The position numbers and the translations under genes are program-made. From contig JBDHWW010000061.1 of NCBI GenBank assembly GCA_039810425.1, forward strand, positions 1 through 15,942: a DNA stretch of 15,942 nt, written 5' to 3'. Each line of letters begins with the position of its first letter. Positions within the stretch are counted from its first letter, which is position 1. A model generated the notes under the pieces. That model did no database searches, was not told the DNA's origin, and was given only the letters and a program-made list of their open reading frames with translations. Positions 279-15,942 of this stretch are shown here, piece by piece. Source of the stretch: Pseudobdellovibrionaceae bacterium (GTDB lineage Bacteria > Bdellovibrionota > Bdellovibrionia > Bdellovibrionales > Bdellovibrionaceae).

Positions 279-1100
279 TCAATCGTAGGTTTCATAGACA
301 ATATCGCCTTGAATTTTTCTGACATTTTCACGAGCTTCGCTTTCTAATTTTTCTTGGACCTTCGCAACCATCTCATTTGAAATGTTCAAGTCTTTCATTT
401 TGTCGACAGTGCTCCCGATGCCATTTTGCTTGATCTCATCGGTGATTTTAGCCATCTTTTCTTTGTCAGCATCAGATCGTTTTTTTAACCATTCCTTTTT
501 TTGGGCGCTCACGCTACCGTGACTGCATCTAGAAATTTTTGCGATCTCTCGAAACGAGAGGCCAGCTTCTAAAAGACTTTCTATGAGCATTGAATTTCTC
601 TTTCGAGCGCGACCGATTTTAACACCTTTTGCTTTGGCATTTTTCATTCCGGCACGAACGCGTTCGCGAATAAGTTCGCGTTCGAGCTGGCTCAAACAAC
701 CAAGAATTGTGAAGAGAGCTAGTCCCATAGGGGAATCTGTGTCGATAGACTCACACAAGGAATGAAATCGGACTTTCCTTTCACGGAATTTTTCTAAAGC
801 TTTTAAAAGATGAGTCGTGCTTCGTGCAAATCTTGAGAATTGAAAAACGACAACCTGACTGCAAAGTCCGGCTTCAACTTTTTCCATCATACGATTTAAA
901 GCAGGCCTACTTTCTTTGGCACCGGAAATACCATGATCCGTGAAAGTTTCAAAGTTTTTAATTCCGTTTTTTTCACACCACTCAGTCAATGCTCTTGTCT
1001 GACTTTCGGCGCCGCCGATTTGGTCCAGGGTGCTGACCCTGATATATAAAAAAACTGCTCGCGTGTCAGATGTTTGTATAAAGTTCTGCTGTTCAACCAC
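279..1100 (-). CDS. Resolvase/invertase-type serine recombinase with HTH and a ~70-aa charged C-terminal extension
   Basis: Catalytic motif YIRVST, then DHGISGAKESRPAL, FSRFARS and ERELIRERVRAG..AKAKG..IGR, and an HTH (GLSFREIAKISRCSHGSVS). Confidence 0.93.
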   Translation of the reverse strand: MVEQQNFIQTSDTRAVFLYIRVSTLDQIGGAESQTRALTEWCEKNGIKNFETFTDHGISGAKESRPALNRMMEKVEAGLCSQVVVFQFSRFARSTTHLLKALEKFRERKVRFHSLCESIDTDSPMGLALFTILGCLSQLERELIRERVRAGMKNAKAKGVKIGRARKRNSMLIESLLEAGLSFREIAKISRCSHGSVSAQKKEWLKKRSDADKEKMAKITDEIKQNGIGSTVDKMKDLNISNEMVAKVQEKLESEARENVRKIQGDIVYETYD

Positions 1101-1288
1101 GATTTTCTCTTTGGTAAATTGATTTAATGTTCATAACGTCACCTCCTCTGTTGTGGGTTTGTGGATGCTGTGACACTTGTTGCAAAATGGAGAACGATGT
1201 TCATGTCTGGATTATTTTTTTGAATGAAGCCCCTAATTTCTCAATGGAATTTTTAAATATTCCGCATCAACTGACCATATAGAATGGG

Positions 1289-1396
1289 TGGCGAATTTAT
1301 GCCGCCACTGGCGGACTTCCGCCATCCACCTATTTTCACTAACTCATCAAATTGACTTCTAAATTTAAAAACAAGGGTGGCGGGCAATCGCCACCC
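1289..1396. promoter_or_regulatory. Three TGGCG-N6-YGCCR inverted-repeat boxes in the divergent resolvase/tra intergenic region
   Basis: TGGCG-AATTTA-TGCCG (1289-1304, imperfect), TGGCG-GACTTC-CGCCA (1309-1324) and GGGTGGCG-GGCAAT-CGCCACCC (1375-1396). Confidence 0.6.
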
Positions 1397-1562
1397 CCAT
1401 TTCGTCGGCATTTCCCAAACTCAAAATCACTTCATCATTTAATTCAACAACTTAAGTCTGTTGGCATCTCGTTTAAAAAGAGAGTGTCCAGTTTTGCTTC
1501 ATAGATACCTCGAAAGCCGCAAGAAAATGCGGTCCTTAACTCAAAACAAAGGAGGTGCATCT

Positions 1563-1769
1563 ATGAATGCAAACCAGAATAAAAACCAATCAAAGATTAA
1601 GACGGAATTTAATCCCTCTCTTATCCAACTAGAAAAAGCGAAACCTATATCGCTTTTTAAACGCATGAAGATGGCGTTCAGCCAGTCGGATTTAGACCTT
1701 CAAAGTTGGGAGCAGCTTGAATCCAAGCGTATGCGTCTGAATTCCTCTCGTGAAGAAGGGAATCACTAA
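1563..1769 (+). CDS. Small hypothetical protein (68 aa), first gene of the transfer operon
   Basis: Strong SD GGAGGTG at 1551-1557 precedes ATG 1563, so the start is moved from 1461. TAATG overlap with the next gene. Confidence 0.7.
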   Translation: MNANQNKNQSKIKTEFNPSLIQLEKAKPISLFKRMKMAFSQSDLDLQSWEQLESKRMRLNSSREEGNH

Positions 1770-2020
1770 TGTCACGCACGTTAAAAGATAAAAATCCAAA
1801 CTACCGCCGCGATGACGAACTGTTTTATCAAACTCGCAACGAGCCACAAATGAAGCGTCGTTTTTTAAATTTCAAAAAAACAGGGGCTCCGCATGACGGC
1901 GATCAGTGCCCAGAGTGTGGCGGACTTACTGATTTTCAAGGGGGTTATCTTACCTGCTGCGAATGTGGATGGACCGAAGACGTGGTTGAAATCTGCGACA
2001 TGGAAAGATTTGCCGTATGA
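1769..2020 (+). CDS. Small zinc-ribbon protein
   Basis: CPECGG...CCECGW double Cys knuckle. Stop/start overlaps on both sides (TAATG, ATGA). Confidence 0.75.
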   Translation: MSRTLKDKNPNYRRDDELFYQTRNEPQMKRRFLNFKKTGAPHDGDQCPECGGLTDFQGGYLTCCECGWTEDVVEICDMERFAV

Positions 2021-2430
2021 GTAAATCAACAGACTTTCCATTTAATAACGTCATTCCTATTCGTAAAACGGATCACTTCGGTGTTTACACAGGTGAAGTC
2101 AGTTCAAGTGGTGAAATCATTGAGGGAGAAAGTGTTGGTATCGCTTTTTTAAAAAACCGAAGTAAAAAATTTCGACTGAAACTTTTTGTATTTCCGAGCC
2201 ACAACTACTTTATCGTGCCTGATGACAATGACGCTACCAAGTACATCGTTCTAAGCCTTGAGGAGTATCAACTTCCTACGGGTGAAATGCGCTCTCACTG
2301 GAACCGCATCGGTGAAGGAAGACTTGTTGGAAGTTTCATCGCACTTCGTATGCAGCTTATTTCTGGAAAACTCTATCTCTGTCTGTTTCCAGATAAAAAC
2401 GATGCTTTGGAGGATTCCATTGCTTCTTAA
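2017..2430 (+). CDS. Hypothetical beta-rich protein with an internal duplication; possible ssDNA-binding protein (DUF736-like)
   Basis: Two similar segments: ESVGIAFLKNRSKKFRLKLFVFPSHNYFIVP and HWNRIGEGRLVGSFIALRMQLISGKLYLCLFP. ATGA-coupled to the upstream gene. The function is inference. Confidence 0.65.
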   Translation: MSKSTDFPFNNVIPIRKTDHFGVYTGEVSSSGEIIEGESVGIAFLKNRSKKFRLKLFVFPSHNYFIVPDDNDATKYIVLSLEEYQLPTGEMRSHWNRIGEGRLVGSFIALRMQLISGKLYLCLFPDKNDALEDSIAS

Positions 2431-2455
2431 CCAATTTAACAAAGGAGGTGAACTT

Positions 2456-2743
2456 ATGAATCGAAAATACAAAATAATTTTCTCCTGTATGCTAATAGCT
2501 GTAGCTTTTGCTATTCCTGAGCTTGCAAACGCAAGTGTTGAGTCTTCGCTTCTAGGAATGCAGACGAAGCTCACGCGCGTGATTCTTCCATCACTCTCTA
2601 TCTGCGCCATTGCATGGGCCGCATTTTCAATGATGTCCGGTAATGACAAGTCAAAGACCCATCTTTGGTATGCCATTATCGCAACGATTGTAGGGTTTGG
2701 CGCGGAATCCATCGTTAATTTCATTTCGCAGACGGTGCGCTAA
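2456..2743 (+). CDS. virB2: VirB2/TrbC-family conjugal pilin (95 aa)
   Basis: SD AAGGAGGTG precedes ATG 2456 (start moved from 2258). Signal peptide ending PELANA, two hydrophobic helices, C-terminal GFGAESIVNF, and position before VirB3/VirB4. Confidence 0.85.
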   Translation: MNRKYKIIFSCMLIAVAFAIPELANASVESSLLGMQTKLTRVILPSLSICAIAWAAFSMMSGNDKSKTHLWYAIIATIVGFGAESIVNFISQTVR

Positions 2744-3066
2744 TGAGTGACGATTCAATTTTGACCTCAACGGTCCCGCGCACACTTGAAACTAAAAATA
2801 AGATCTTAGGCCTTGAGCTTTCAGATGTGCTGGTTCTTTTATTAAATCTTTCAGCTCAGAACTTAATTTTTGGCTCAACAAGTTTTAAAATCCCAATGGT
2901 ATTTGGAACAAGTTTAATTTTAGGCTTGGCGCTTTTCTTTTTTAAGCGCGGAAAGCCTGATCATTATCTTCAGCATGTTTTTGAGCACTTTGTCTCTCCA
3001 ACAGTCTTTGCTGCAAACACAATTGATCGTGAATACCGAAGATTCAATAAGGGTGGTGGCAAGTGA
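2743..3066 (+). CDS. VirB3/TraL-like inner membrane protein
   Basis: 107 aa; VPRTL..K.KILGLE motif, two TM segments and KRGKPDHYLQH; lies between the pilin and VirB4. Confidence 0.78.
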   Translation: MSDDSILTSTVPRTLETKNKILGLELSDVLVLLLNLSAQNLIFGSTSFKIPMVFGTSLILGLALFFFKRGKPDHYLQHVFEHFVSPTVFAANTIDREYRRFNKGGGK

Positions 3067-5525
3067 TTGAAGCTGCACTTTGCGAACAACTTCCGTTCTG
3101 GGAATTTGAACAAGATCCGATCCCACACACAATTTTATCGGACGGCTCCGTTTCAGCGGGAATTGAGCTTTTGCCAATCGATATTGAATGTTTTGATGAA
3201 TCACGTATCAATCAACTAACCCTTCGACTTAGAGCCTTTGCGAACTCGCTTCCCGAAGGAACAACGGCGCAGTTTTTGGTTAAGGTGGAATCTGATGTCG
3301 AAGAGATTTTAAAGAAACACTGTGACCTTGTATCAACTGACAACGAATTTTTGCGCAGCCTTGATCAAAAGCGTTCCCAACGTTTGCAAGATCAGATTCA
3401 ATCCGAAACGATCTTTCGCCCAAGATTGCTCTTTTTCTTAAGAACGGGCGGCGTCCAAAAACCAAGTTCATTTTCATTCGGTCAGGCGAAGAAATTCTCT
3501 GCTGAGTTCGAAAAGAACTATGAAGATCAACTGCAAACGTTAAGTCAGGCTCTTGCGAGTGCCTCAGGCATCCTATCATCACTCGGATTTAAAGCAGATC
3601 GCCTTGAACGAGATGATCTTATTCAAATTCTTTACAGCTATTTTAACCCAAAACGCTCGCATGACATCGAACAGCCTGTGGTTTCACCACGATTAACGGA
3701 GTTAGATGGGGCTTCACCTAGGTCACAGGTTGTTTTTGGAGATTTGGTTTTAGACCGCGAAGATTTTATTTTAGACCAGCGTCGCACACGCGTTTTAACT
3801 CTTAAAACCATGCCGGAGATGACATTTGGCGGAATGATGAGTTCATTTTTAGCTTTGCCGTTTAAGTACGAGCTTATTTTTTCGTTCCGAATTCAGGATC
3901 AGGCCAAAGAAATGAAGGCGCTTGAAAGTAAACGCCGCATGGCCCACTCGCTTTCAAGCACCACAAGTAACCGCGTGTCAGACTTAGAAAGTGAATCGCG
4001 TTTGTCACAGACAACAGATCTGATTCGTGAACTGATTGAAACAGGCCAGCGCATCTATCAAGCGGAAATGGTTTTGATTCTGCGTGAGTCAGCAACACTT
4101 GATGGTGAAAAGAAATTAAACCTTAAAACAAAAGAAGTTTTATCGCGCTTTAAAACCTTAAGTGGATCTGAGGGTATTCAGGAAACCGTTGGAGCCTGGA
4201 AGATCTTTAAATCAGATTTACCGCTGGCGCCAGTCAATCTTGTCCGCGCTAAGGCAATGAAAACAAATAATCTTGTTGATTTTCTACCACTTTATGGCGC
4301 AGCGACGGGCGACGAAATTCCCGTGTGTCTTACGAAAACACGCCTTGGGACTTTGTATTCCTATGATCCGTATTCAAACAGGCTATCGAACTACAATATC
4401 CTAACTACGGGATCTAGTGGTTCAGGTAAGAGTTTTGCGAATAACTTCTTAATGCTTCAACAAATTGCTCGCGGAAGCCGCCTTTATGTCATCGACATCG
4501 GCGGCTCGTATAAGAAAATGACAGAAGTCTTGAATGGTCAGTATTTTGAAATCAACTTAAGCGGTCAATATACAATTAATCCGTTTGAGCTATCTAATCC
4601 CGCTGAACCTCCAAGTGGCGATCGCCTTAAAGGTATGGTCAGCATTATTGAGCAGATGGTCGTAGATCAAGGCGAAAAACTAAGCCGATTTGACAGAGTA
4701 CAACTCGAAACAGCTTTAACCTCAGTTTTTGAAAAGGCCCGCAGTGAAAATACGCAGCACTCACCGGTTTTATCAGATCTTGCAAAGCACTGCTTAAAAG
4801 ATCCTGAAGAATCCCTAAGACGGATAGGAAAACTTCTTTTTCCCTGGGTTGGTGAAACTCCTTACGGAAAACTACTTGATGGGCATGGGAAAATTGCCGT
4901 TGATAAGTCCATTGTCGCTTTTGATTTGAAAGGACTTTCTCAGTATCCGGATCTTCAATCCGTGATGATTCTGATTTTAACGAATTTTATCTTAGAACAA
5001 GTTGAAACAGATCGCACGGTTCCAAAGCGGGTCTTGCTTGATGAGGTTTGGGAGCTTTTAAAAAGTCCTGCTGCTAGTTCTTTCATGGAGTATGCAGCTA
5101 GAACTTTTCGTAAAACAGGAAGCGGAATTACATTTATCACCCAAGGGGTTGAGGAAATTATCGCAAGTGGCATGGGCCCTGCGATCTTAAACAACACCGC
5201 AACTAAGCTTGTGATGCTGCAAAAAGGTGACACGAATATTCTTCGTGATGCTTTAAAGCTGAACTCCCAAGAACTTCGTTTGCTTCAAAGTCTCGAGCAG
5301 CGAAAGGGCCAATTCAGTGAAGGATTTCTGATGGAAGGAGAAAGTCGTCAGGTAATTCGTATTGAGCCTTCGCCTTTAGAGTATTGGATCTCCACGTCAG
5401 ATGCCCGCGATAATCAGTTTTTAAATCGACTTCGCAATGAAGGGCATTCGTTAGAATCAGCTCTGATGAAAGCAGCAGAGGTAGCACCGTTTGGCGCCTC
5501 CTCTATGAAGGCGGTGGCTGCATGA
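3063..5525 (+). CDS. virB4: VirB4/TraC-family T4SS ATPase
   Basis: 820 aa; Walker A GSSGSGKS, VIDIGGSY, Walker B VLLDEVW, RTFRKTG..ITFITQ and ILNNT. Confidence 0.95.
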   Translation: MIEAALCEQLPFWEFEQDPIPHTILSDGSVSAGIELLPIDIECFDESRINQLTLRLRAFANSLPEGTTAQFLVKVESDVEEILKKHCDLVSTDNEFLRSLDQKRSQRLQDQIQSETIFRPRLLFFLRTGGVQKPSSFSFGQAKKFSAEFEKNYEDQLQTLSQALASASGILSSLGFKADRLERDDLIQILYSYFNPKRSHDIEQPVVSPRLTELDGASPRSQVVFGDLVLDREDFILDQRRTRVLTLKTMPEMTFGGMMSSFLALPFKYELIFSFRIQDQAKEMKALESKRRMAHSLSSTTSNRVSDLESESRLSQTTDLIRELIETGQRIYQAEMVLILRESATLDGEKKLNLKTKEVLSRFKTLSGSEGIQETVGAWKIFKSDLPLAPVNLVRAKAMKTNNLVDFLPLYGAATGDEIPVCLTKTRLGTLYSYDPYSNRLSNYNILTTGSSGSGKSFANNFLMLQQIARGSRLYVIDIGGSYKKMTEVLNGQYFEINLSGQYTINPFELSNPAEPPSGDRLKGMVSIIEQMVVDQGEKLSRFDRVQLETALTSVFEKARSENTQHSPVLSDLAKHCLKDPEESLRRIGKLLFPWVGETPYGKLLDGHGKIAVDKSIVAFDLKGLSQYPDLQSVMILILTNFILEQVETDRTVPKRVLLDEVWELLKSPAASSFMEYAARTFRKTGSGITFITQGVEEIIASGMGPAILNNTATKLVMLQKGDTNILRDALKLNSQELRLLQSLEQRKGQFSEGFLMEGESRQVIRIEPSPLEYWISTSDARDNQFLNRLRNEGHSLESALMKAAEVAPFGASSMKAVAA

Positions 5526-6223
5526 GGAATAAAATCATCGGATTTTTTCTTTGTATGACGCTGACGGTATCCCCTAGGTCCGCGAAAGCGGACCTGTTCG
5601 GAGGCGATGTCGCGGTTTTAGTACAGATTCTGGCTCAGGCCATTCAAACGGTCACAACACTTAAGGGGGTACTTGAAAATGGCAAGGACACTCTGAATTT
5701 GATGCGTGATTTGAATGCGGGCATCAGAAGCGGGATTGATGTGATTCGCATCATCAATCCAAACTTCAATCCCGGCGTCTATGGAGACTTAAAAGACGCC
5801 AATCGAGTTTTAGCTGCAATTGAAGCCGTGTACGGTGTTACTCCAAAAGGAATGGACGAAGACTTGATGCGTTCACAGGATCAAAGTGTCGCTGAAGTTA
5901 TTTCTATGAACCGAAATCTCTACGACTATGCCGATCAGGTGGACCGCGAGCGTGACAAAATCCTTTACCACGCCCAAGTAGTAAGTCCTCAAGGGGCTGG
6001 GAAACTTCAAAACCAAGCTCTCGGTGTTTTGATTGGTGTTACAACACAGCTCTTACGGACACAAAGTCAGATGCTTAAGATCATGGCGCAAAATATGGCC
6101 TATGATACGCGTAAAGAAAAACTCTCTACTCAGAATTTTCAAGAAAACTATCAAGGGCTCTCTCAAGGGTTTGAGAATCTTCCAAAGGAAACCAAACTTC
6201 CACGCCTTGGGGGTGGCAAATGA
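5522..6223 (+). CDS. Secreted VirB5/TrbJ-like helical protein
   Basis: Signal peptide (AKA|D) and Gln-rich helical body; located between VirB4 and the VirB6-like gene. Confidence 0.65.
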   Translation: MRNKIIGFFLCMTLTVSPRSAKADLFGGDVAVLVQILAQAIQTVTTLKGVLENGKDTLNLMRDLNAGIRSGIDVIRIINPNFNPGVYGDLKDANRVLAAIEAVYGVTPKGMDEDLMRSQDQSVAEVISMNRNLYDYADQVDRERDKILYHAQVVSPQGAGKLQNQALGVLIGVTTQLLRTQSQMLKIMAQNMAYDTRKEKLSTQNFQENYQGLSQGFENLPKETKLPRLGGGK

Positions 6224-7092
6224 TGCCAAACCTTGAAATGCTAGGAACACTGGTGCGTGATCTGCACCAAGGCTTGAGTCATCTATTCTATATCATGTTA
6301 CCTATAGCGATTCTGTTTTCGGTGGTTTTTAGTTTTTTAAAATCAGGCGATCCCAATTATCCAGACGTTGTAAAGCGTGCATTCGTAGCGGCTCTATTGA
6401 TTGTTTCATTTCCTGAAGTTTCAAACTTCATCTTGGATGTTTGTGACGGGATCGCTCTTAAGATTGACGATATGTCGGGGCTTGAAACGTTCATGAAGAT
6501 GGCCCAAGAAAAATCCCTCGGATATGCGGCGGCAAAAAAAGTCCTACTGCTAAAGTTCGATGGGTTTTTCATGGCGATCTTAAGCTTTGCAAGCTTCGCT
6601 CTACTCTATATAGCGAAATATCTGACAGTGATTCTGTACTATTTTTATTGGGGCCTTTTGTCTATTGCAGCCCCCTTAATGATTCTTTGTTATTTATTTC
6701 CCTCAACAGCAAACATCACGGTCAATCTGTATAAGGGACTCATTGAAGTTGCATCGTGGAAAATAATTTGGGCGATTTTATCAGCCATGCTGAAATCGGT
6801 TTCGCTTGGTTTTATTTATGAAAATGAGCAGTCGTATCTGCCACTTGTCGCAATGAATTTCATTATTGCTATTGCGCTCTTGTTCACACCAAGAATTTTA
6901 CGCTCTCTCATTGGAGAAGGTGTTCAATCAACAGCAGCGAATATTGGAAGTGCTGCGGTGTCAGGAGTTCTCACGACAGTGGCCCCTGCTGCAAAACTTG
7001 CACAAGGCGTGAAGTTTTCTCAAGCGGTGCTACCTAGATCTTGGCAAGCATCCAGTCCTAAAAACCATTCAACAACTAACAAACGATCTTAA
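6220..7092 (+). CDS. VirB6/TrbL-like polytopic membrane protein
   Basis: About 5-6 TM segments, an APLMILCYLFPST motif and a small-residue-rich C-terminal tail. Confidence 0.78.
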   Translation: MMPNLEMLGTLVRDLHQGLSHLFYIMLPIAILFSVVFSFLKSGDPNYPDVVKRAFVAALLIVSFPEVSNFILDVCDGIALKIDDMSGLETFMKMAQEKSLGYAAAKKVLLLKFDGFFMAILSFASFALLYIAKYLTVILYYFYWGLLSIAAPLMILCYLFPSTANITVNLYKGLIEVASWKIIWAILSAMLKSVSLGFIYENEQSYLPLVAMNFIIAIALLFTPRILRSLIGEGVQSTAANIGSAAVSGVLTTVAPAAKLAQGVKFSQAVLPRSWQASSPKNHSTTNKRS

Positions 7093-7112
7093 AGATCGAA
7101 GGAGGTGTATTT

Positions 7113-7703
7113 ATGAAAGATAAAATTAAAGTTCAACTTAGTCAATATCCCAAAGCCATGCGTGAGTTCGCAGAAGAAAACCTGAACATCAAGTTTCTCT
7201 GCGGAGCACTGCTTGCAATTACTTTTTTCATGCTGATTCTGGTTCTGTATTTAGTGAAGCGTGGCCCCACAGTGATTGCACTTGAAAGCAGTGGTTCAGT
7301 TGCTGCTATTGAAACCAAAGTAACCGATGCACAAATTGAATCAGCAGCTAAAGAGTATGTACGTCACCGTTACTCATGGGATGAAAAGACAATTTCTGAA
7401 GAGCTTGAAAAAGCTAAATTCTTTGTGCTGCCATCCCTTGCAGCGGCATTTGAACGCTCGATGCTGGAAACCATGAAATTTGTGCGCGAGAAGAAAGTCA
7501 GACAGCGTGTTTATCCAAAATCTGTAACTGTTGATTTGAAGGAGAAGAAAATTTCAATTCTTGCAGACCGCATTACTGAGTTTGATAATTTGAAAGCGGC
7601 CACCGCGCTTAGACTTTCGCTTCAGTTCACCGTTGATGACCGTACTATCATCAATCCTTGGGGCGTCTATATAACAAAAGAATCTGAGGAGGCTTCTCGA
7701 TGA
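7113..7703 (+). CDS. VirB8/TrbF-like bitopic protein
   Basis: Single N-terminal TM, YVRHRYSWD helix, C-terminal NPWGVYIT motif typical of VirB8, and SD GGAGGTG. Confidence 0.82.
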   Translation: MKDKIKVQLSQYPKAMREFAEENLNIKFLCGALLAITFFMLILVLYLVKRGPTVIALESSGSVAAIETKVTDAQIESAAKEYVRHRYSWDEKTISEELEKAKFFVLPSLAAAFERSMLETMKFVREKKVRQRVYPKSVTVDLKEKKISILADRITEFDNLKAATALRLSLQFTVDDRTIINPWGVYITKESEEASR

Positions 7704-8407
7704 GAACTTTCTTAGCTGTAGTTATGTTATTAAGTATGACTTCGATCAGCAGGGCTCAGGTCAGAAATTCAGTCATTAAGGAAGATGGTATTTTGACTGT
7801 GAAAACGGCTCTTGGGATTGCGACCATTGTGCAGCTTCCTGAGGTTATTCAGTCGGCCATCATTGGAGATCAATCTGGATTTAAAATTGAGTACCTCGAT
7901 AAAGCTGTTACGATCAAGCCGCTTCGCTGGGGAGCTAAAACAAATCTATACCTAGTAACGGGATCAAGACGGTTTAATCTCAGGCTTGTTACCGGCTCTC
8001 AAGACACGGCTGATTACATTGTCTATCTAAAAAAACCAGAACCGCCCAAGTCAGTAACGAAATGGCGTCTTGTTAATCGCAGCAATGCACAAAAAAATAT
8101 GAAGCTCACCGTTGTTCGTATCGGCCAAAGTCCGAGTGGGTTTATTCTAGTTGATGCGCTTTTGACTTTGACTCAGCCGCAGCGAACGACAGTAACCCCA
8201 GAGTCTATCTGGATCAGACAAGCTGGTTCTTCAAAAGTAATTAACAGTATTTTTATGTCGGATTCAAAAGTCGAAAAAGACAAACCACTTCGCTTGGGAC
8301 TTTCTCTTGCGAAATCTGACCTTATCAAAGGGAAGCCCCTTGTAATTGAGGTGCGATCTGAGCAGACGCTTTCACTCCAACTGAATGAAGGTGATTTATG
8401 GAAGTAA
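7700..8407 (+). CDS. VirB9/TrbG-like core complex protein
   Basis: Signal peptide, ATIVQLP...IIGD, VTIKP...TNLYLVT..RRFNLRL; immediately upstream of VirB10. Confidence 0.82.
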   Translation: MRTFLAVVMLLSMTSISRAQVRNSVIKEDGILTVKTALGIATIVQLPEVIQSAIIGDQSGFKIEYLDKAVTIKPLRWGAKTNLYLVTGSRRFNLRLVTGSQDTADYIVYLKKPEPPKSVTKWRLVNRSNAQKNMKLTVVRIGQSPSGFILVDALLTLTQPQRTTVTPESIWIRQAGSSKVINSIFMSDSKVEKDKPLRLGLSLAKSDLIKGKPLVIEVRSEQTLSLQLNEGDLWK

Positions 8408-9357
8408 AAAATATCTTCACTAGTGCAAAAGAAAAATTTAAAAGACTCAAGAGTGGATTAAAAAATTCAGTTATCGAAGAAAATGCTTTTAGCCGGAAAT
8501 TTGATCTGAATTTCAAGACTCTTAAAATTGCGGCGATTTGCGGTATTGTCATTTTTATTACAGTTGTGTTTTTGCTTCCAACGGACGTTCCCGTTGAGTT
8601 TGCAGAAAAGATCGAGCGTTCTGAAGAAAATAAAAGTGATTCTGTTAAACCACAGGACGGCTCCCACCAAACAGAATCAGCTCAAAACCTTTGGGCGGCA
8701 CCTCAGGTTGCAGTACCTCGTGGTTCCGGTGGAAGTCAGATCAATTACAACACTTCCATGATCGTTGGCTCAAAAAATGGAAATGCTAAAACTGAGCTCA
8801 GATCTGGCATCCGTATTCCTTTAAGGCTTTTAGATAAAGTGATCTTATCTCAAGACCCAGTTCCCATCTTAGCAGAATCTATTTTGGATTCTGTTTCAGA
8901 TTCTGGGTTAATGCTTCCAGCTGGGACAAGGTTCTATGGACAAGCCAGCTTTCAAAGTGGATCAGACCGAGCCCTTATTCATTTTGATCGAATTTCTTTA
9001 CCAAGTGGGCAGATCAAAAGAATTGCAGCACTTGCATTGGATAAATCTGGCCAGCCAGGGGTCACGGGCAAAGTCTTTTCTGATGGAGTGAAGAACACGG
9101 CAGGCCAAGTGCTCACAACATTCATCGGAGGACTTGCCGCTGGAAGCATGCAAACCGACATCATGGGCAACTCGAAAGGCGGCATTGAAAACGGTCTTTT
9201 AGGAGCTGTTGCCGCCACCGCTCAGTCGCGGGCTCAAGCCTACGGAGAAAAGCTTAAAACAGAGCGCGAGTGGATTGAGCTTAATCCTGGGACTGAGTGT
9301 GACGCGGTTTTAAATGAATCTTTCAAATTACAAGAAGGAGGTGAAAGTTATGAATAA
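8398..9357 (+). CDS. virB10: VirB10/TrbI-like core complex protein
   Basis: N-terminal TM, low-complexity linker, LPAGTRFYG, RALIHFDRISLPSG, D.SG.PGVTG, Gly/Ala antenna helices and IELNPGT. Confidence 0.88.
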   Translation: MEVKNIFTSAKEKFKRLKSGLKNSVIEENAFSRKFDLNFKTLKIAAICGIVIFITVVFLLPTDVPVEFAEKIERSEENKSDSVKPQDGSHQTESAQNLWAAPQVAVPRGSGGSQINYNTSMIVGSKNGNAKTELRSGIRIPLRLLDKVILSQDPVPILAESILDSVSDSGLMLPAGTRFYGQASFQSGSDRALIHFDRISLPSGQIKRIAALALDKSGQPGVTGKVFSDGVKNTAGQVLTTFIGGLAAGSMQTDIMGNSKGGIENGLLGAVAATAQSRAQAYGEKLKTEREWIELNPGTECDAVLNESFKLQEGGESYE

Positions 9358-10996
9358 TAAATCGGAAATGTCAGATCGCGGCTTTTTAGTTCTAACGGTA
9401 GCGCTGGGGATCGGAATCCTATGGCTCCGCTATAAAATTCAGATCATGTCCTTCATTGTAAATTACAGAATCGCCGTGGCTGCTGCCATTACAATGATTT
9501 TGGTTATAGCTTTGCTGTTTGTAAGAAAAAAGATTCTGTCTAAAAATAAAGAACGCAACACTGAGCGTGATATTGTCACTCCAACGAATGGTGAAGATGC
9601 GGTTTTTGCAGGTCTATCTGCAACTGGTAACAACATTTACGTTAAACAACAGTTCCGCAGAATGCACACTCAGGTTGTCGGTACTACAAACGCCGGAAAA
9701 ACAGAGTCAGTGATTTTACCCTGGGCTATTGATGATATTAAAAAAGGCCGTGGGCTTCTTATTATAGATGGTAAGTCCGATATGAGTTTGTTAAATAAGC
9801 TCTACGCCTACGTAAAACGCCATCATCGTGAAGGTGATTTAAGAATTCTTTCACTTTGCAATGTGGGAATCAGTCACACTTTTAATCCACTTTGCGGTGG
9901 CTCCGCTCTTGAAATCACAGAACGTGTTTTTAACGCGTTTACTTTTGAAAACGAGTATTTCAAAAGTATTCAGTATGATGTGTTCCTTCATTCGCTTTTG
10001 ATGTTAGAGGCAGCTCAAATAAAACCTACACCGCTTAGAATGATTGAGTGCATGAAAAATGAAAAGGCCTTAGCTGATCTTGCCATGATGACGAAAAGCC
10101 CGCGACTTCAGATTTGGGCTGGAGATTTTTTAAAATTAAGCCGCGAGGAGCGTGAGCAACGAACAAGTGGTCTTGTGGCGCAGCTTCAAAGTTTTGCTGT
10201 GGGAGAAACAGCTCAAATTTTTAACTCTGAGATTTCCGACATCAATCTCGAACAAGCTCTTGAGCACAATGAAATCATCTACTGCCAGCTTCCGGCGTTA
10301 AAAATTCCAATATTAGGTAAAGCTACAGGAAAAATGATTCTTCAATGTTTACAAAGCGCTGTTTCGTCAAGACACCTGGGAATGTGCGAAAATCAAAGTT
10401 TCTTCTCCGTATACTTGGATGACTTCACCGAGTATTTGACTCCAAGCTTTGTCACACTCTTGAATAAATCAAGAAGTGCTAATGTTGGGATTGTTTTTGC
10501 GCACCAAGCTCTGGGCGACCTTGATGGTCTGGGTGATGGAGTTAAGAATACGATTCTGACCAACTCAAATCTTAAAGTTTTTATGCGCACGAATGAGCCC
10601 GAATCGGCTGAATATTTTTCGGCGGTCATTGGAACCTCGCAAAGCGCCAAAGTCACTGAGCGACAAACCAAGGGACTGTTTGGCTCTGAGAAAACTGGCG
10701 ACGGCTCTGTTCGTGAAGTTGAAGAGTATAAATATCATCCGAATATTTTTAAACAAGAACTCGGTGTTGGTGAGGCTGTTATGGTGTTACCACATGCCCA
10801 AGGCAGTCTGGCGGTTCGTTTGAAATTTAAGAAAAGTTTTGATCTTGATAAACCTCAAATTCCGTTGATCCAAAAATCAGAACCAATGGGTATGTTAAAG
10901 CTTGATCCTACAGTTAAAACAAATCAGCCGCAGATACTCAAGCCTCATTCTACATCTGTGATGATGGAACTTACTCAAGAAAAGAGGGCTGCGTGA
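9350..10996 (+). CDS. virD4: Type IV coupling protein (VirD4/TraD family)
   Basis: Two N-terminal TMs, HTQVVGTTNAGKT (Walker A), IIDGKSD, TFNPL, YLDDF (Walker B) and KSRSANVGIVFAHQ. SD AAGGAGGTG supports ATG 9350 rather than 9314. Confidence 0.93.
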   Translation: MNNKSEMSDRGFLVLTVALGIGILWLRYKIQIMSFIVNYRIAVAAAITMILVIALLFVRKKILSKNKERNTERDIVTPTNGEDAVFAGLSATGNNIYVKQQFRRMHTQVVGTTNAGKTESVILPWAIDDIKKGRGLLIIDGKSDMSLLNKLYAYVKRHHREGDLRILSLCNVGISHTFNPLCGGSALEITERVFNAFTFENEYFKSIQYDVFLHSLLMLEAAQIKPTPLRMIECMKNEKALADLAMMTKSPRLQIWAGDFLKLSREEREQRTSGLVAQLQSFAVGETAQIFNSEISDINLEQALEHNEIIYCQLPALKIPILGKATGKMILQCLQSAVSSRHLGMCENQSFFSVYLDDFTEYLTPSFVTLLNKSRSANVGIVFAHQALGDLDGLGDGVKNTILTNSNLKVFMRTNEPESAEYFSAVIGTSQSAKVTERQTKGLFGSEKTGDGSVREVEEYKYHPNIFKQELGVGEAVMVLPHAQGSLAVRLKFKKSFDLDKPQIPLIQKSEPMGMLKLDPTVKTNQPQILKPHSTSVMMELTQEKRAA

Positions 10997-11286
10997 TGAG
11001 AAATATATTTTTGCTTTTTTCTTTGATGATAGTCGGATGCGCTCACTCGCCTAAGTGCGGAAACCCTGAAGGGGCCAAGGTTGTTTTGGTTGGCGAAAAC
11101 TCCTGCCAAGTCCGTATTCGTCAGGTAACAATGGGCTCAGAACTCAAAATCCCGCAGTCCTTAAAAGGTGCTGCGTTAGCTGATTTTACATTGGAATGGA
11201 TCGAGCCATCCCTTGATTCTGGCAGGATTGAGTTAGGGCATTTTGTACTGGTTCCGTCATCGGCGAAAAAGGATTCCGGTTTATGA
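10993..11286 (+). CDS. TraV/VirB7-like outer-membrane lipoprotein
   Basis: Lipobox IVG|C, additional Cys residues, and C-terminal WIEP..DSG.I..GHFVLV resembling the TraV C-terminal motif. Confidence 0.65.
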   Translation: MMRNIFLLFSLMIVGCAHSPKCGNPEGAKVVLVGENSCQVRIRQVTMGSELKIPQSLKGAALADFTLEWIEPSLDSGRIELGHFVLVPSSAKKDSGL

Positions 11287-12080: not shown

Positions 12081-12115
12081 GGAAATTCCAAAACAAATTC
12101 AATGAGATCGCGTCG

Positions 12116-12212
12116 ACCCAGTCCCGTCCCCCTAAATCTACGATTTTTCCTGACCACCCCCACCCAACGATGTTGGTTGAAGGTGGTCAGGAACCGGGGG
12201 ACGGGACTGGGT
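12116..12212. repeat. Nested inverted repeat forming a branched hairpin; candidate oriT
   Basis: Perfect 17-bp arms (12116-12132/12196-12212), perfect 12-bp arms (12147-12158/12182-12193), apical CCAAC-GAT-GTTGG and side hairpin AAATC-TAC-GATTT. The structure is seen directly; the oriT role is inferred. Confidence 0.8.
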
Positions 12213-12252
12213 GGAAGTCAGTGGAAATAAAAAATAAATAAGGAGGTGAAAT

Positions 12253-12672
12253 ATGAAGGAAGAAAAAATAAATCAGAAAACCAAAGAAAATAAAGAAGAC
12301 AGCAACGAAGTTGGAAAATTCATTCGAATAAGTGGCGAAGCTGATGAGGCATTGTCGAAGCTCCACGATGATTTGAATAAAATCGGAGATGTTGTCAGGA
12401 TTACGAAGGTGATGGTTGCGAGCTATGTGTTGGAAAAATTTTGCGCGATTTTTAGTGATGATGATTTGAAAGCTTTGTACATGAAGAACGTGTCGGAAGT
12501 GGATTTATTACGATTTGCCTATAAGCGAGCAATGGATTCTGGCGTGATGCCGGAGAATCTGCGCGAAATCCTCTTTGCAAACGCAGGCTTAACTCCTGGC
12601 CCCAAAAAAGTGAAAAAAGCTAGACAAGTCAATGGTAGCATTGCTACCATTGATGAATCGGAGGCAAGTTGA
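12253..12672 (+). CDS. Hypothetical protein, probable ribbon-helix-helix DNA-binding (relaxosome accessory-like)
   Basis: SD AAGGAGGTGA; FIRIS strand followed by two helices (EADEALSKLHDDLN; TKVMVASYVLEKF). Confidence 0.65.
   Translation: MKEEKINQKTKENKEDSNEVGKFIRISGEADEALSKLHDDLNKIGDVVRITKVMVASYVLEKFCAIFSDDDLKALYMKNVSEVDLLRFAYKRAMDSGVMPENLREILFANAGLTPGPKKVKKARQVNGSIATIDESEAS
12621..12653 (+). promoter_or_regulatory. Putative sigma70 promoter with overlapping 25-bp palindromic operator upstream of the XRE gene
   Basis: TAGACA (12621-12626), 18 nt, then TACCAT (12645-12650) with extended TG. Perfect palindrome TCAATGGTAGCA-T-TGCTACCATTGA at 12629-12653. Confidence 0.65.
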
Positions 12673-12923
12673 AACCTCAAGAGTTCAAAAAAATTCGGGA
12701 GTCTTTCGACTTAACTCAAAGTGAGCTTGCAGAATGTCTTGGCCTTACGCAAAAGACGGTAAGCCAATATGAAATGGGTTTTCGAGTGCCTGGCCCTACC
12801 GTGCAAGTGGTGATGAATACCTTGGATCGTGTTAAGCGAAATCAGCTCAAAACTCTACTCGAAATTATGAAAGAGGTATCGGAAGAGCTGAAAACGACCA
12901 AAGAAAAATGGAATCCGTCTTGA
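12669..12923 (+). CDS. XRE/Cro-family HTH transcriptional regulator
   Basis: FKKIRESFDLTQSELAECLGLTQKTVSQYEMGFRVP is a canonical HTH_3 pattern; TTG start with GGAGG. Confidence 0.92.
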   Translation: MKPQEFKKIRESFDLTQSELAECLGLTQKTVSQYEMGFRVPGPTVQVVMNTLDRVKRNQLKTLLEIMKEVSEELKTTKEKWNPS

Positions 12924-13123
12924 GACGGCCAAAGGAAAAGAAGGACTCAAAGACAATGACACAGTTGCCGCCAATCACAGTTGAATATGTAAAAGATGAG
13001 TCTCTGAACTCACAAAGACGTTGTGACGAAATTGTTGAGATCCTTTATCAGATGATGGTTCATCGGCCAAAACGAGGTCGTCCAAGAGTGAAAGATCAAG
13101 AGGAGTTTTTAGATGTCGCATAA
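12908..13123 (+). CDS. Small basic protein with AT-hook-like KRGRPR motif; candidate recombination directionality factor
   Basis: Overlaps both the XRE and integrase genes. Start uncertain (12908 or later). The function is inferred from position. Confidence 0.6.
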   Translation: MESVLRRPKEKKDSKTMTQLPPITVEYVKDESLNSQRRCDEIVEILYQMMVHRPKRGRPRVKDQEEFLDVA

Positions 13124-14900
13124 AATAGGAGCTTATCTACGTGTGAGTACCGAAGAACAAGCGGCTGCGGTCGAAGGTTCATTAGATAATCAACGCTATC
13201 GTTTAAAGGCATACGTCGATTCAAAAAACATGCAGGAAAAATCTTGGGGAAAAGTCGTTGATTTCTACGTCGATGATGGCTTTTCAGCGAAGGATACAAA
13301 TCGTCCGGCGTATCAACGAATGATGCTCGATTTGAAAAACAAGAAGATAGATTTGATTTTAGTAGCTGATCTTTCGAGGTTATCTCGTAATCTTTTAGAT
13401 TTTTGCGGTTTATTGAGTTTTTTAGAAAGGCACAAATCGGGATTTCTTTCGATCAAAGAGCAATTCGATACAAGCACTTCAATTGGCCGAATGATGGTTT
13501 ATCAAATAATCACATTGGCTCAATTTGAACGAGAACAAACATCGGAGAGAGTTGCTCTCGGTGCTCACGCACGTGGAATGCGTGGTCTTTTGAATGGTGG
13601 TCGTCCGATATTGGGTTTTGATAAAGATCCTAATAAGCCAGGCGTCTATGTCGTAAATCCCGAAGAAGCAAAAGTGGTGCGTCGTATTTTTGAATTATAT
13701 CTTGAGCAAGGGTCAAAGGCTCGCACAATTCGAAAATTGGATGAACTCGGAATTAAGCCTAAGCTAAACTTCAAATCAAAAAGTGGTTCACTCGATAGAG
13801 GTTGGTCAGTTGAGAATTTGGGGTATCTTCTTAGCAATGCAACTTATAAGGGATGCCACGAGGTTAATAAAAAAAGAAAGAGTGAAGACCAGGAATCGTT
13901 GAAACCTCATCATCGTTATCAAATTGTTAAAGCCTCTTGGCCTGCGGTGGTTTCGGATGACCTTTTTAACAAAGTTCAAGAGCAACTAGATGCGGCTAAA
14001 TCAATCGAACGTACACGCCTAGAAGGGGCAAGCCCACGTCTTTATATTTTGTCGAGTATTTTTAAATGTGCGGAGTGTGGTGAAGCTCTGGTTGGCCAGT
14101 CATACCACGGTCATGGCGGCGTATACCGATACTACGGACATACAACAAAAGGATCAAAAAATGGCTGCAAGGTGCAGAGGGTTTCTGCTGATGAAATCGA
14201 AAAAGCTGTGATTAGGTATCTCAAGGACAGCTTGGTCGATTCATCTTATTTTAAGAAGTTGCAGGCAAGATTAAAGCAGCTCACAGATCGGTCGACGACA
14301 GACTACTCTGACCAGATCAAGCATGTACAAAAAGAAATCGCCATGGTGGAGCAAGAGGCGACCAACATATTTAGAATGCAGGCTCAGGGTAACTTTGGTT
14401 CCGATGTCTTAAAGATGATGTCTGACCGATTGGAGTTGATCGCCAAGCAAAAGAACCAATATGTCGAATCTCTAAAGATGTTTGAGTCTAAGCAAAACGA
14501 TGTGTTTGATGCGGCAGAATCGGCTCAATTTATTCGATCAAGTATTGTTGAGTTCGAAAAGGGTTTTGATAAGGCTCCGATGGGGCTTAAGAAAAGACTT
14601 GTTCGTAACACCCTTAAGCAAGTTGTGTTGGCTCACGATAAATTGGCGTTTTGGTTTTTCACAGACGAAGATGAGCGGGGCTTTGGGCAGCGCCATTTGA
14701 AATTAGTTCGAGATGAGTCGAGTGAGGTCGGTGTTTCTTTGGCTTCGGGGGCTGATTTCGCGGTTTCTAATCTGTCGGTACAAGGTTTGGATATTGGTAA
14801 AATTGGTGATGCTGGCACGACTCGAACGTGCGACCTATTGCTTAGAAGGTCTATGTCTTATCCACCCGTATCAATTCTTTATGTGATTTCATTGGGTTAG
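13113..14900 (+). CDS. Large serine recombinase (integrase)
   Basis: YLRVST catalytic Ser, DDGFSAKDTNRPAY, DLSRLSRN, recombinase domain (NPEEAKVVRRIFELY...WPAVVSDDLF), zinc ribbon CAECG...H...C and coiled coil. Confidence 0.95.
   Translation: MSHKIGAYLRVSTEEQAAAVEGSLDNQRYRLKAYVDSKNMQEKSWGKVVDFYVDDGFSAKDTNRPAYQRMMLDLKNKKIDLILVADLSRLSRNLLDFCGLLSFLERHKSGFLSIKEQFDTSTSIGRMMVYQIITLAQFEREQTSERVALGAHARGMRGLLNGGRPILGFDKDPNKPGVYVVNPEEAKVVRRIFELYLEQGSKARTIRKLDELGIKPKLNFKSKSGSLDRGWSVENLGYLLSNATYKGCHEVNKKRKSEDQESLKPHHRYQIVKASWPAVVSDDLFNKVQEQLDAAKSIERTRLEGASPRLYILSSIFKCAECGEALVGQSYHGHGGVYRYYGHTTKGSKNGCKVQRVSADEIEKAVIRYLKDSLVDSSYFKKLQARLKQLTDRSTTDYSDQIKHVQKEIAMVEQEATNIFRMQAQGNFGSDVLKMMSDRLELIAKQKNQYVESLKMFESKQNDVFDAAESAQFIRSSIVEFEKGFDKAPMGLKKRLVRNTLKQVVLAHDKLAFWFFTDEDERGFGQRHLKLVRDESSEVGVSLASGADFAVSNLSVQGLDIGKIGDAGTTRTCDLLLRRSMSYPPVSILYVISLG
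14804..14849 (-). other. 3' half of tRNA-Arg(UCU): attachment-site fragment, not a complete tRNA
   Basis: Minus strand C-CTTCTAA-GCAAT-AGGTC-GCACG-TTCGAGT-CGTGC-CAGCATC-A-CCA: anticodon loop with TCT, perfect T-arm and CCA end. The 5' anticodon-stem strand (expected ATTGC, seen TAGAC) and the 5' acceptor strand are absent. Confidence 0.88.
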
Positions 14901-15029
14901 TCAATGAGCGAAACTGTCCCGACGAAGGGCGGTAGTGAGGTCATTTTGTTTATGGTGTTCTGGAAGTAAGAGAGGGCCGGAAAATCAGAGAATTTTTGGA
15001 CTCCTGAAAATTACCGAAAAGCCCGATAT

Positions 15030-15914: not shown

Positions 15915-15942
15915 TTTAATCTCGATATTGCGTCAAAAGGAG

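Follow-up and report, generated by a model that had tools for sequence, protein, structure and literature searches.

Outside MPF_T, VirB11 is "rarely found" (19%), VirB1 is dispensable and lacks homologues in the other diderm classes, and MPF_B and MPF_C already possess a VirB-like core without VirB11, as given in the excerpted survey text of PMC4027160. The coupling protein TcpA is restricted in print to MPF_FA of Firmicutes (PMC3548315, PMC12857230). For serine integrases, the zinc-domain (ZD) motif of attP lies 5 bp farther from the core than that of attB (PMC3783163, in extract), and the authors describing DsiB of Dehalococcoides suggested that its gene attains full length only in the circular form or beside a tandem island (PMC3146451, in extract). 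We analysed a contig of 15,942 nucleotides (C61; hereafter the window) from a Pseudobdellovibrionaceae genome; the far end of its element lies outside the assembly. The window probably holds the end with the transfer and integration genes of a putative self-transmissible element from a Bdellovibrionota-wide family, with the att site located inside its own serine-integrase gene and joined to the 3' end of a tRNA-Arg. The element is likely a DNA-transfer system of unusually lean build in predatory Bdellovibrio-type bacteria.

Table 1. Features of the window and the evidence for each.
Feature	Position	Strand	Evidence
Small serine resolvase with HTH, cargo or neighbour	279..1100	-	PF00239
Zinc-ribbon protein, probable regulator	1769..2020	+	Conserved in closest subgroup
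Conserved protein of unknown function	2017..2430	+	Directly 5' of pilin in most family members
TrbC/VirB2 pilin	2456..2743	+	PF04956, E 3e-8, above cut-off
VirB3/TraL-like	2743..3066	+	TIGR02762, E 2e-4, weak, below cut-off
VirB4 ATPase	3063..5525	+	PF19044, PF11130; Walker A/B; TIGR02746 315 bits (cut-off 567)
Likely VirB5/TrbJ-like minor pilin	5522..6223	+	Position and Atlas look-alikes only
VirB6-like polytopic membrane protein	6220..7092	+	PF04610 weak, E 0.03; six hydrophobic segments
VirB8	7113..7703	+	PF04335, E 3e-7
VirB9	7700..8407	+	PF03524, E 5e-11
VirB10	8398..9357	+	PF03743, E 4e-16
VirD4-type coupling protein	9314..10996	+	PF02534, PF12696; two N-terminal TM segments
Small lipoprotein, putative VirB7/TraV analogue	10993..11286	+	Lipobox motif
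MOB_C-like relaxase, 265 aa	11283..12080	+	Winged HTH and restriction-endonuclease-like domain
Nested inverted repeat, oriT candidate	12113..12215		Compensatory changes
Conserved 139-aa protein after repeat	12253..12672	+	Putative relaxosome accessory by position
Xre-type HTH regulator	12669..12923	+	PF01381
71-aa gene 5' of integrase, directionality-factor candidate	12908..13123	+	Linkage to serine integrases
Large serine integrase, N-terminal part	13113..14900	+	PF00239, PF07508, PF13408
attL: P' arm 14785-14795, predicted core 14808-14809, tRNA T-loop 14823-14827	14785..14832	-	Mirror-arm model
3' half of host tRNA-Arg(TCT), displaced by separate tyrosine-integrase island	14804..14848	-	Complementary 5' half on C17
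Neighbouring island end, outside ICE	14849..15942		Arm 14849-14948 and 294-aa orphan ORF 15030-15914

One tight operon (2456-12080) encodes the pilin through the relaxase-like gene (Table 1). Its order and most of its gene roles are as originally predicted; the VirB5 role is assigned from position and from language-model look-alikes in PF07996 and DUF4141 clusters (0.91-0.92), with no relevant match in Pfam or NCBIfam and no usable fold in the structure model (pLDDT 39). VirB10 also matched the TraM domain PF12508 at a sub-cut-off level (28 bits), and the coupling protein probably starts near 9350. The lipoprotein had been credited with a TraV feature; what was seen is the lipobox alone, present in 14 of 19 homologues. 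The protein encoded directly upstream of the pilin gene had no Pfam match, and its Atlas neighbours are unnamed Bdellovibrionota clusters.

As predicted, the operon contains no ORF for VirB11 or VirB1, and VirB11, VirB1 and F-type genes were likewise not found in relatives with mapped ends, where they might have lain beyond the operon. In tblastn, queries for F TraE, TraK, TraB, TraV, TraW, TrbI and partial TraU gave no match; Pfam found no TraF/H/N domains in the ORFs scanned (86 and 79), a search without TraF/H/N reference sequences that divergent copies could escape. The lack of VirB11 had been read as a sign of a stripped-down, divergent class, which overstates it: VirB11 is rare outside MPF_T, and its absence is normal there (PMC4027160, in extract).

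The channel might instead not be self-sufficient, being a reduced, predator-tied MPF_T-like system served in trans by a host VirB11-like ATPase (Tad/type IV pilus) and a transglycosylase. Other contigs of the host genome do encode several VirB11/TraJ-like ATPases and carry SLT-like genes, the gene order resembles virB, VirB9 scored best to TIGR02781, and the named close relatives of the element are Bdellovibrionota. However, pilus ATPases are general host genes, the rarity of VirB11 outside MPF_T applies here too, VirB4 did not group with R388 TrwK (the one MPF_T reference, on a long branch), and VirB4 reached 197 bits with the VirB4 model TIGR00929 (cut-off 643) versus 315 with the TraC model. 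We consider such borrowing quite improbable.

In the phylogenetic tree, VirB4 fell outside the F, T, G, B, I, FA and FATA references (MPF_C was not among them), so that the nesting in a described class which would have undone the original prediction was not seen. The plasmid VirB4 best by coverage was 25% identical. Against the Bacteroidetes model VirB4 reached 63 bits (cut-off 262); it did not group with the two MPF_B references, and neither the TraG-type VirB4 clade nor the TraJ/K/M/N models of MPF_B applied. The Tfc/PFL_47xx set and VirB4 clade of MPF_G were also not found (TIGR03744, 71 bits versus 521), in agreement with the tree. A new class is not established, because the deep backbone of the tree is without resolution. 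The same backbone leaves room for a deep MPF_F (or MPF_C) branch after loss of accessory genes, which CONJscan would file under an existing class: the best NCBIfam matches are F-type TraC and TraL and SXT TraD, and public records label the family VirB4 'TraC family'. Yet all these scores are below cut-off, the F accessory queries listed above were unmatched, and the F reference pair forms its own starred clade without family sequences. We hold this placement possible, if rather doubtful. The proposed mosaic of a P/T core with F-like features is not supported, F similarity being weak and limited to VirB4 and VirB3.

In 11 of 40 loci, VirB9-like, VirB10 and MOB_C-like genes accompany an FtsK-type protein, whereas the window itself has VirD4. 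The FtsK/SpoIIIE protein of these sister lineages scored 123-132 bits with TcpA versus 72-79 with host FtsK and 27-30 with TrwB. MPF_FA is a monoderm T4SS without VirB9/VirB10 and with a MOB_T relaxase, a description that the sister lineages do not fit.

As indicated by a structure model and fold matches, the relaxase combines a winged HTH with a PD-(D/E)xK-like catalytic domain, the domain composition of MOB_C; the matches were of middling quality, with Z reaching 8.5 in the HTH and 7-7.8 in the nuclease part. Residues P133, D134, D138, E152, E154, K158, R162 and Y163 are invariant in 41 sequences and were compared with the MOB_C signature spacing. The window protein scored 19.9 bits with the MobC model NF041423, far under the cut-off of 200; PF13814 was matched at E<=0.01 by 5 of 37 relatives (one above cut-off), and the family profile recovered two PF13814-like proteins at 1e-23. 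The relaxase appears to be a divergent, MOB_C-like subfamily under model cut-offs. MOB_C relaxases cleave oriT site-specifically without a covalent adduct, an activity that is putative here. The PD-(D/E)xK relaxase originally proposed thus appears to belong to the known MOB_C type. The inverted repeat downstream showed two-sided changes in 18 of 36 pairs, a level equalled in 0 of 500 shuffles, and this covarying repeat is a candidate oriT. The relaxase would cut at the repeat, the VirD4 protein would feed DNA to the channel, and the VirB2-3-4-5-6-8-9-10 channel would run on VirB4 and VirD4 alone, as in VirB11-less classes.

A VirB4 match was found in 133 of 401 Bdellovibrionota genomes, patchily distributed, and the gene order was the same in 13 loci and again in 40 chosen loci (these include kin, and the counts are not independent). 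The predicted ICE family with conserved synteny is supported, and our literature search found no published description of it. T4SS, coupling protein and relaxase lie together in one chromosomal locus, as in an ICE; attL is in the window, and far ends with strong scores were found in 10 relatives. Where ends were mapped, mirrored att arms lie 28-44 kb apart, and in one relative (G040) a GC step coincides with the predicted boundary. A near-identical element with other flanks was present in runs X2-X4 and X7; no attP junction was seen in the contigs compared, these runs included. The predatory hosts, and the ankyrin, TPR or LRR genes inside some operons, might point to a T4SS domesticated by the host for protein secretion or predation rather than DNA transfer. 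Against this speak the patchy distribution, the integrase with att ends, the linkage of relaxase and repeat in 36 of 40 loci, the variable metal-efflux and defence cargo of delimited elements (type I RM, BREX, CBASS-like) and an element GC below host level, and we regard it as very improbable.

The small resolvase had been proposed as a second recombination module; it was absent from 13 related loci, 40 further loci and 138 cargo ORFs of nine delimited elements, and has six homologues elsewhere in the same genome. Although another sample (run X2) also shows it next to the operon, it is cargo or a neighbour and lies outside the conserved module. At the other end, ARAGORN called the joined C61 and C17 halves as a 77-nt tRNA, and the same displaced-half layout occurs in the genome of relative L005. 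The island end (70% match to C17 5258-5403) was replaced by other DNA in runs X2-X4.

The integrase carries Resolvase, Recombinase and zinc-ribbon domains and the catalytic Ser of large serine integrases; its last ~29 residues in the window are read from the antisense tRNA half and the adjacent island. The integrase at a tRNA end was predicted correctly, but no complete tRNA lies within the window. The 71-aa gene occurred in 18 of 29 serine-integrase loci versus 0 of 11 tyrosine-integrase loci, and 26 of 30 loci had a full antisense tRNA or tmRNA overlapping the integrase ORF. Of 17 elements searched with the mirror-arm model, 9 gave far ends matching at 11/11 positions (7 of these 9 had played no part in building the model), with far-end arm scores of 19-21 versus 12-16 on the opposite strand. 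The arm search found no far ends for G385, L005 and L006; for the window element the best arm in the assembly matched only 8-9/11, and far ends of its type came to light in other genomes alone. At 14809, the predicted core, a contig from another study diverges from the window; in 4 of 9 cases the shared ends begin precisely with the predicted core.

In all 9 tabulated elements the T-loop lies at -24 and the P arm at -29, the 5-bp offset of the ZD motif. This geometry suggests that the T-loop of the tRNA (GTTCR) is recognised by the zinc-ribbon domain of the integrase, a reading that fits the use of 11 tRNAs and tmRNA as targets across the family; integrases 88-89% identical have different tRNA targets. 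Of 30 loci, only 16 have C[GA]AAC at +15..+19, as has 1 of the 27 control tRNAs. The enzyme would cut at tRNA positions 71-72, so that the element would supply only the last four bases and could switch among tRNAs and tmRNA.

Since the att site lies inside the integrase gene, insertion leaves the gene cut in two. At 13 of 14 far ends of relatives there is a headless HTH and Recombinase tail (146-184 aa) in the integrase frame, with a chance of such an open frame of 3e-5 to 1e-3 per far end; the G373 tail is out of frame. PF07508 was above cut-off in 12 of 12 tails scanned. Fused integrase ORFs of 745, 752 and 782 aa occur in three genomes; they look like tandem two-element junctions rather than circles, because their arms match 2-5/11 only. 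Alternatively, the tail may be translated alone, as a small DNA-binding regulator in its own right or as a relic, with its frame continuity reflecting descent. Of 401 genomes, 42 carry tail homologues, and some of these genomes lack a VirB4 match; two homologues stand unpaired in the genome of the window, a few have an early Met, and the truncated integrases retain all three known domains. However, most tails lack an in-frame ATG near the start, the frame tracks the integrase across phases 0, 1 and 2, and fused ORFs exist, and we judge a separate tail unlikely. Excision is predicted to rejoin the integrase to its DNA-binding tail. The integrated, truncated enzyme would keep its catalytic and DNA-binding domains and would carry out excision with the 71-aa neighbour as directionality factor; the circle would encode a longer enzyme (~740-780 aa) with the extra HTH and Recombinase tail, which may, as a guess, favour integration or repress excision. 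Three features go beyond the original prediction: sister lineages with an FtsK-type protein, a candidate oriT and an integrase gene that is split.

About one third of the sampled Bdellovibrionota genomes carry such a VirB4 match, and because the family proteins are below standard model cut-offs, conjugation surveys probably miss them. A near-minimal diderm T4SS is a system for asking what VirB11 does, and a natural VirD4/FtsK motor swap on related channels bears on whether TcpA-like proteins transfer single- or double-stranded DNA. The att rule supplies ready attP/attB pairs and accounts for target switching. The split gene makes the directionality switch directly testable; by the same token, integrases cloned from integrated copies lack one domain. 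Tentatively, and with less than even confidence, the family could be a ninth mating-pair class native to predators, with one channel for a VirD4 or FtsK/TcpA motor, an integrase reading any tRNA or tmRNA end via the T-loop, and the gene split as integration/excision switch. In such a class a MOB_C nuclease acting non-covalently would cut the DNA, which the FtsK/TcpA motor would possibly move in double-stranded form.

Among known systems, MPF_T (R388, Ti virB) shares the order B2-B3-B4-B5-B6-B8-B9-B10, but the window lacks VirB11/VirB1, its VirB4 is far below the class cut-off and its lipoprotein gene comes after that of the coupling protein. MPF_F (F, SXT) provides the best-scoring VirB4 and VirB3 models and has no VirB11, whereas the window family has no TraW, TraU or TrbI match, a short VirB6 and a TrbC-type pilin. 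MPF_B (CTnDOT type) and MPF_C are likewise compact virB-like diderm T4SSs with VirB3/4/6/8/9/10 and no VirB11, MPF_B also having VirB2 and VirB5 (PMC4027160, in extract); the window family differs from MPF_B in VirB4 clade, relaxase and host phylum. The sister lineages resemble TcpA-type MPF_FA (pCW3, Tn916, ICEBs1) in their coupling protein but are diderm, with VirB9, VirB10 and a MOB_C-like relaxase. MOB_C relaxases (TraX of pAD1, MobC of CloDF13; PMC12857230) share the N-terminal winged HTH, the restriction-endonuclease-like domain and the adjoining coupling protein; in place of the five direct repeats of TraX (PMC12857230) there is a nested inverted repeat. SSV1/pTN3 'suicidal' integrases are also split by tRNA-gene integration but are archaeal tyrosine enzymes with inactive halves (PMC8371274, in extract); an SSV1-type enzyme was rejected here, ours being a serine enzyme that retains all known domains (catalytic, Recombinase and zinc-ribbon) in its N-part. 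In streptococcal ICE serine integrases in rumA and in the Mx8 integrase, att lies inside the gene and the C-terminus differs between integrated and excised forms, but rumA is a protein-coding target with a frame change and Mx8 has a tyrosine enzyme (PMC4701971, in extract). In the Dehalococcoides ssrA islands, a serine integrase gene at the tmRNA 3' end overlaps attL without a stop codon of its own; as far as the extract of PMC3146451 goes, these islands are mobilisable, without a T4SS, have one target and no identified tail domain, whereas the present family uses 11 tRNAs and tmRNA and has a defined HTH and Recombinase tail.

The transfer ORFs of the window (contig C61; GC content 42.5%, versus 49.0% for the genome) formed a single tight operon. 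Pfam and NCBIfam backed the predicted pilin, VirB4, VirB8, VirB9, VirB10 and VirD4-type coupling protein, but VirB3 and VirB6 only weakly; VirB5 was called from its position and from Atlas look-alikes, its predicted structure being unusable. The same gene order was kept in 13 related loci, all titled Bdellovibrionota or Oligoflexia, in agreement with the synteny expected in other genomes. Within a sample of the phylum, 133 of 401 genomes showed a VirB4 match at E<=1e-20, a figure that takes in partial matches and is not the number of intact elements. A named Bdellovibrio isolate carries a VirB4 that is 75% identical. We picked 40 loci on long contigs, spread over the identity range. VirB9 and VirB10 were present in 38 of them and the relaxase in 36, the remainder being mostly truncated by the region end. 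The coupling protein was of the VirD4 type in 26, FtsK/SpoIIIE (PF01580) in 11 and cut in 3; the integrase was a serine enzyme in 22, a tyrosine enzyme in 11 and cut in 7. The small resolvase, originally counted as a module of the element, occurred in none of the 40.

This is a real, apparently undescribed ICE family, made of known kinds of parts newly combined. No description of it was found in the literature on Bdellovibrio ICEs, on serine integrases and tRNA, or on split genes, at the level of titles and abstracts; the supplements, whose integrase or ICE tables may list such elements, were outside this search. An Rfam search returned a chance miRNA match and nothing else.

Features of the window, of other contigs of the same genome (C) and of related loci (L)
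Contig or locus	Positions	Feature
C61	1-77, 15866-15942	contig ends with ~2x depth
C61	279-1100	small resolvase
C61	1286-1400	short GC-rich inverted repeats
C61	2456-12080	T4SS operon
C61	11283-12080	relaxase-like protein
C61	12113-12215	nested inverted repeat
C61	13113-14900	large serine integrase
C61	14804-14848	3' half of tRNA-Arg(TCT)
C17	~5258-15200	tyrosine-integrase island
C55	5364-6835	resolvase homologue near tRNA-Ser
C7	85044-85848	resolvase homologue near tRNA-Ser
C99	2085-2585	unpaired integrase tail
C64	116 onward	unpaired integrase tail
L133	6900-8400	tyrosine-integrase island, layout as on C17
L001	12574-14480	group II intron reverse transcriptase
L124	853-2924	Replic_Relax protein and coupling protein
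L137	165-3090	Replic_Relax protein and coupling protein

Several related loci carried additional genes. A group II intron reverse transcriptase sits between virB4 and virB5 in L001 and L044, and a secreted-looking protein of 396 aa is inserted between pilin and virB3 in L064, L065 and L068; in L082, L078 and L070, the operon is interrupted by ankyrin/TPR/LRR proteins, a subtilase and a methylase. A cargo block recurs 5' of the operon in L009-L013, L001, L048 and L049 (sigma-54 response regulator, histidine kinase, SBP_bac_5 protein and YcaO-like gene). Resolvase homologues on C55 and C7 follow tRNA-Ser genes at a distance of ~500-600 bp and may represent a distinct family of small islands linked to tRNAs. 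In the window, the GC-rich inverted repeats lying between the resolvase and the promoter region of the operon have a 67% match in another genome of the genus.

To place the family, we compared VirB4 with the described classes. All class-specific NCBIfam scores were below cut-off (bits/cut-off: TraC-F 315/567, VirB4 197/643, MPF_G 71/521, Bacteroidetes 63/262), and the top-ranked plasmid match was 25% identical. With FastTree (147 VirB4s), 27/27 family rows fell into one clade alongside further VirB4 representatives (0.92). With IQ-TREE (ATPase domain, 37 rows), the subclade of the window received 100/100, the whole family versus references only 75/88, with long-branch warnings and an open backbone. 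By these tests, the family would lie outside MPF T, F, G and B. A separate conjugation class did not follow, as the backbone was open; the references numbered one or two per class, with none for MPF_C. The top-ranked named plasmid VirB4 is on L135 (Myxococcus plasmid NZ_CP123279), typed as non-mobilizable and with a DUF2381 gene at the VirB9 position; its T4SS is possibly another unclassified one.

As predicted, no VirB11, VirB1 or F-type genes were found within the delimited elements. Fourteen reference proteins (VirB11, TraJ, PilB, three transglycosylases and eight F proteins) had no match there, their only matches lying beyond the tRNA or far outside the elements; the test is blunt, for the true VirB8-10 likewise escaped F TraE, TraK and TraB. 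No such family turned up within an element in Pfam scans covering 86 ORFs in flanking or inserted positions and 79/138 cargo ORFs (E<=1e-12 for cargo). However, the lean gene set is less odd than originally held, because VirB11 is uncommon in classes other than MPF_T and VirB1 is dispensable (PMC4027160, in excerpt).

FtsK-type protein matches were found in 54 of the 401 genomes (E<=1e-60); these findings apply to relatives of the element, not to the window. Among 32 matches checked on VirB4-bearing contigs, 29 (25 genomes) lay on the same strand and no more than 20 kb downstream. Judged by scores, the protein resembles TcpA of the pCW3 type more closely than host FtsK, and it also scores to EssC/EccC models. 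In print, TcpA is confined to Firmicutes MPF_FA (PMC3548315, in excerpt; PMC12857230). The sister lineages at L071-L083 carry the FtsK/TcpA-type coupling protein and lack the inverted repeat downstream of the relaxase; a short VirB9 (126-157 aa) and tyrosine integrases are further traits of one group.

The assignment of the 265-aa relaxase-like protein to the PD-(D/E)xK type was borne out. The residues PD...ExE...K...RY were invariant, and a confident model (pLDDT 90) showed a winged HTH at the N-terminus; its best matches included restriction-endonuclease folds, at middling scores. These features match MOB_C as described for the relaxase TraX (PMC12857230). Replic_Relax matched 5/37 relatives, one above cut-off, and 41 close homologues gave no meaningful Pfam match. 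A PDB sequence search, Foldseek at E<=0.001 and a metagenome scan with the relaxase as query found no match.

Downstream of the relaxase gene, a nested inverted repeat was 95.8% paired across 14 sequences, with changes on both sides in 18/36 pairs; none of 500 shuffles reached this level and slid controls gave 32-52%, although the structure was derived from the window itself, which favours it. The core pattern of the repeat occurs nowhere else in the genome, and a viral scan with the repeat as query matched one contig. A repeat of at least 10 bp was present within 330 bp 3' of the relaxase in 34/35 VirD4-type loci, whereas 10/11 FtsK-type loci had none after the relaxase. The nested repeat may be considered an oriT candidate. 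L124 and L137 encode a Replic_Relax protein and a coupling protein but no channel; they are found next to the ICE in the genome of the related locus L005 and on pBdHAGR5 (a 10.9-kb Bdellovibrio plasmid), and are likely mobilised by the T4SS of this family.

The ORF end is overlapped in antisense by a complete tRNA (11 anticodon types) or tmRNA in 26 of 30 integrase loci, with no stop codon before it. Of the remaining four, the window and L005 have tRNA halves, one lies at a contig end and one in a masked stretch. Different tRNAs are targeted by integrases sharing 88-89% identity. An att model built on three far ends (T-loop -24, mirrored arm -29 and +19, core -6/-5) was searched in 17 elements: arms matched 11/11 in nine (seven of them new) and 9/11 in G040, and were weak in four and absent in three. 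The far end in G303 first set at 37.1 kb was superseded by 34.9 kb. The model positions equal those of the LI integrase zinc-domain motifs, 11-19 in attB and 16-24 in attP (PMC3783163, in excerpt). The main text of a large survey of these enzymes makes no mention of tRNA (PMC10083194). X7, a contig obtained in another study, matches the window up to 14809 and then diverges (30 letters only); the divergence fits neither tRNA nor attP and may reflect a secondary site or a further tandem island.

At 13/14 far ends, the integrase frame remains open for 146-184 codons, versus the 6-45 codons by which it extends into the tRNA in the majority of integrated copies. The resulting tails are homologous; in 12/12 scanned, part of a second Recombinase domain scored above cut-off, and most also had an HTH. 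The tail is known from relatives, that of the window being unassembled; the closest integrase, in G349, has one. In the window's element, the far end is predicted 28-44 kb from 14804, with an arm that mirrors 14785-14795 and, next to it, a tail of ~170 aa lacking the integrase head. A weak search found no longer proteins containing the tail, and a separate search found fused ORFs of 745-782 aa in three genomes (L155, L156 and L157) in the same gene context. Because their arms match poorly, these probably mark junctions of two tandem elements and would encode chimeric enzymes. Under a switch model, the long integrase would catalyse integration, and the short form excision with the help of the 71-aa protein encoded before it. 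Unpaired tails were present on C99, C64, L123, L125 and L126; several share a single tRNA array, which points to tandem stacking and to far ends left as relics. Those on C99 and C64 were rejected as the far end of the window's element, since their arms do not mirror. The split-gene layout is already known in kind from DsiB (PMC3146451), streptococcal rumA ICEs and Mx8 (PMC4701971) and SSV1-type enzymes (PMC8371274); the excerpts of these three papers contain neither a defined tail domain nor a T-loop rule.

The predicted tRNA link of the window's own integrase held in part: its end carries the 3' half of tRNA-Arg(TCT), but not the full tRNA, and the complementary 5' half is on C17, so that mis-binning of C61 was rejected. 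Both contig ends run into ~2x-depth sequence, so the assembly breaks there. On C17, the 5' half is followed by a 404-aa ORF and then by a different complete tRNA-Arg; L133 has the same layout, with a Phage_integrase match. Therefore, the tRNA was split at the anticodon by a second island carrying its own copy, and the DNA to the right of 14848 is part of it. An ICE crossover in the anticodon loop, as first read, was rejected: far-end repeats span only the last 6-13 nt, and the anticodon junction is that of the tyrosine-integrase island. The window is not an excised circle either, the junction at 14848 not being attP. The island, with its 404-aa tyrosine integrase, splits tRNA-Arg(TCT) without repair and brings a full tRNA-Arg; on C17, a related island, in which toxin-antitoxin-like and Rep-like genes are duplicated, has in turn split this copy. 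A tRNA split with its own copy supplied has a precedent in tRNA-dependent lysogeny (PMC10865867, abstract), to which the arrangement is similar; the islands described here are non-actinobacterial.
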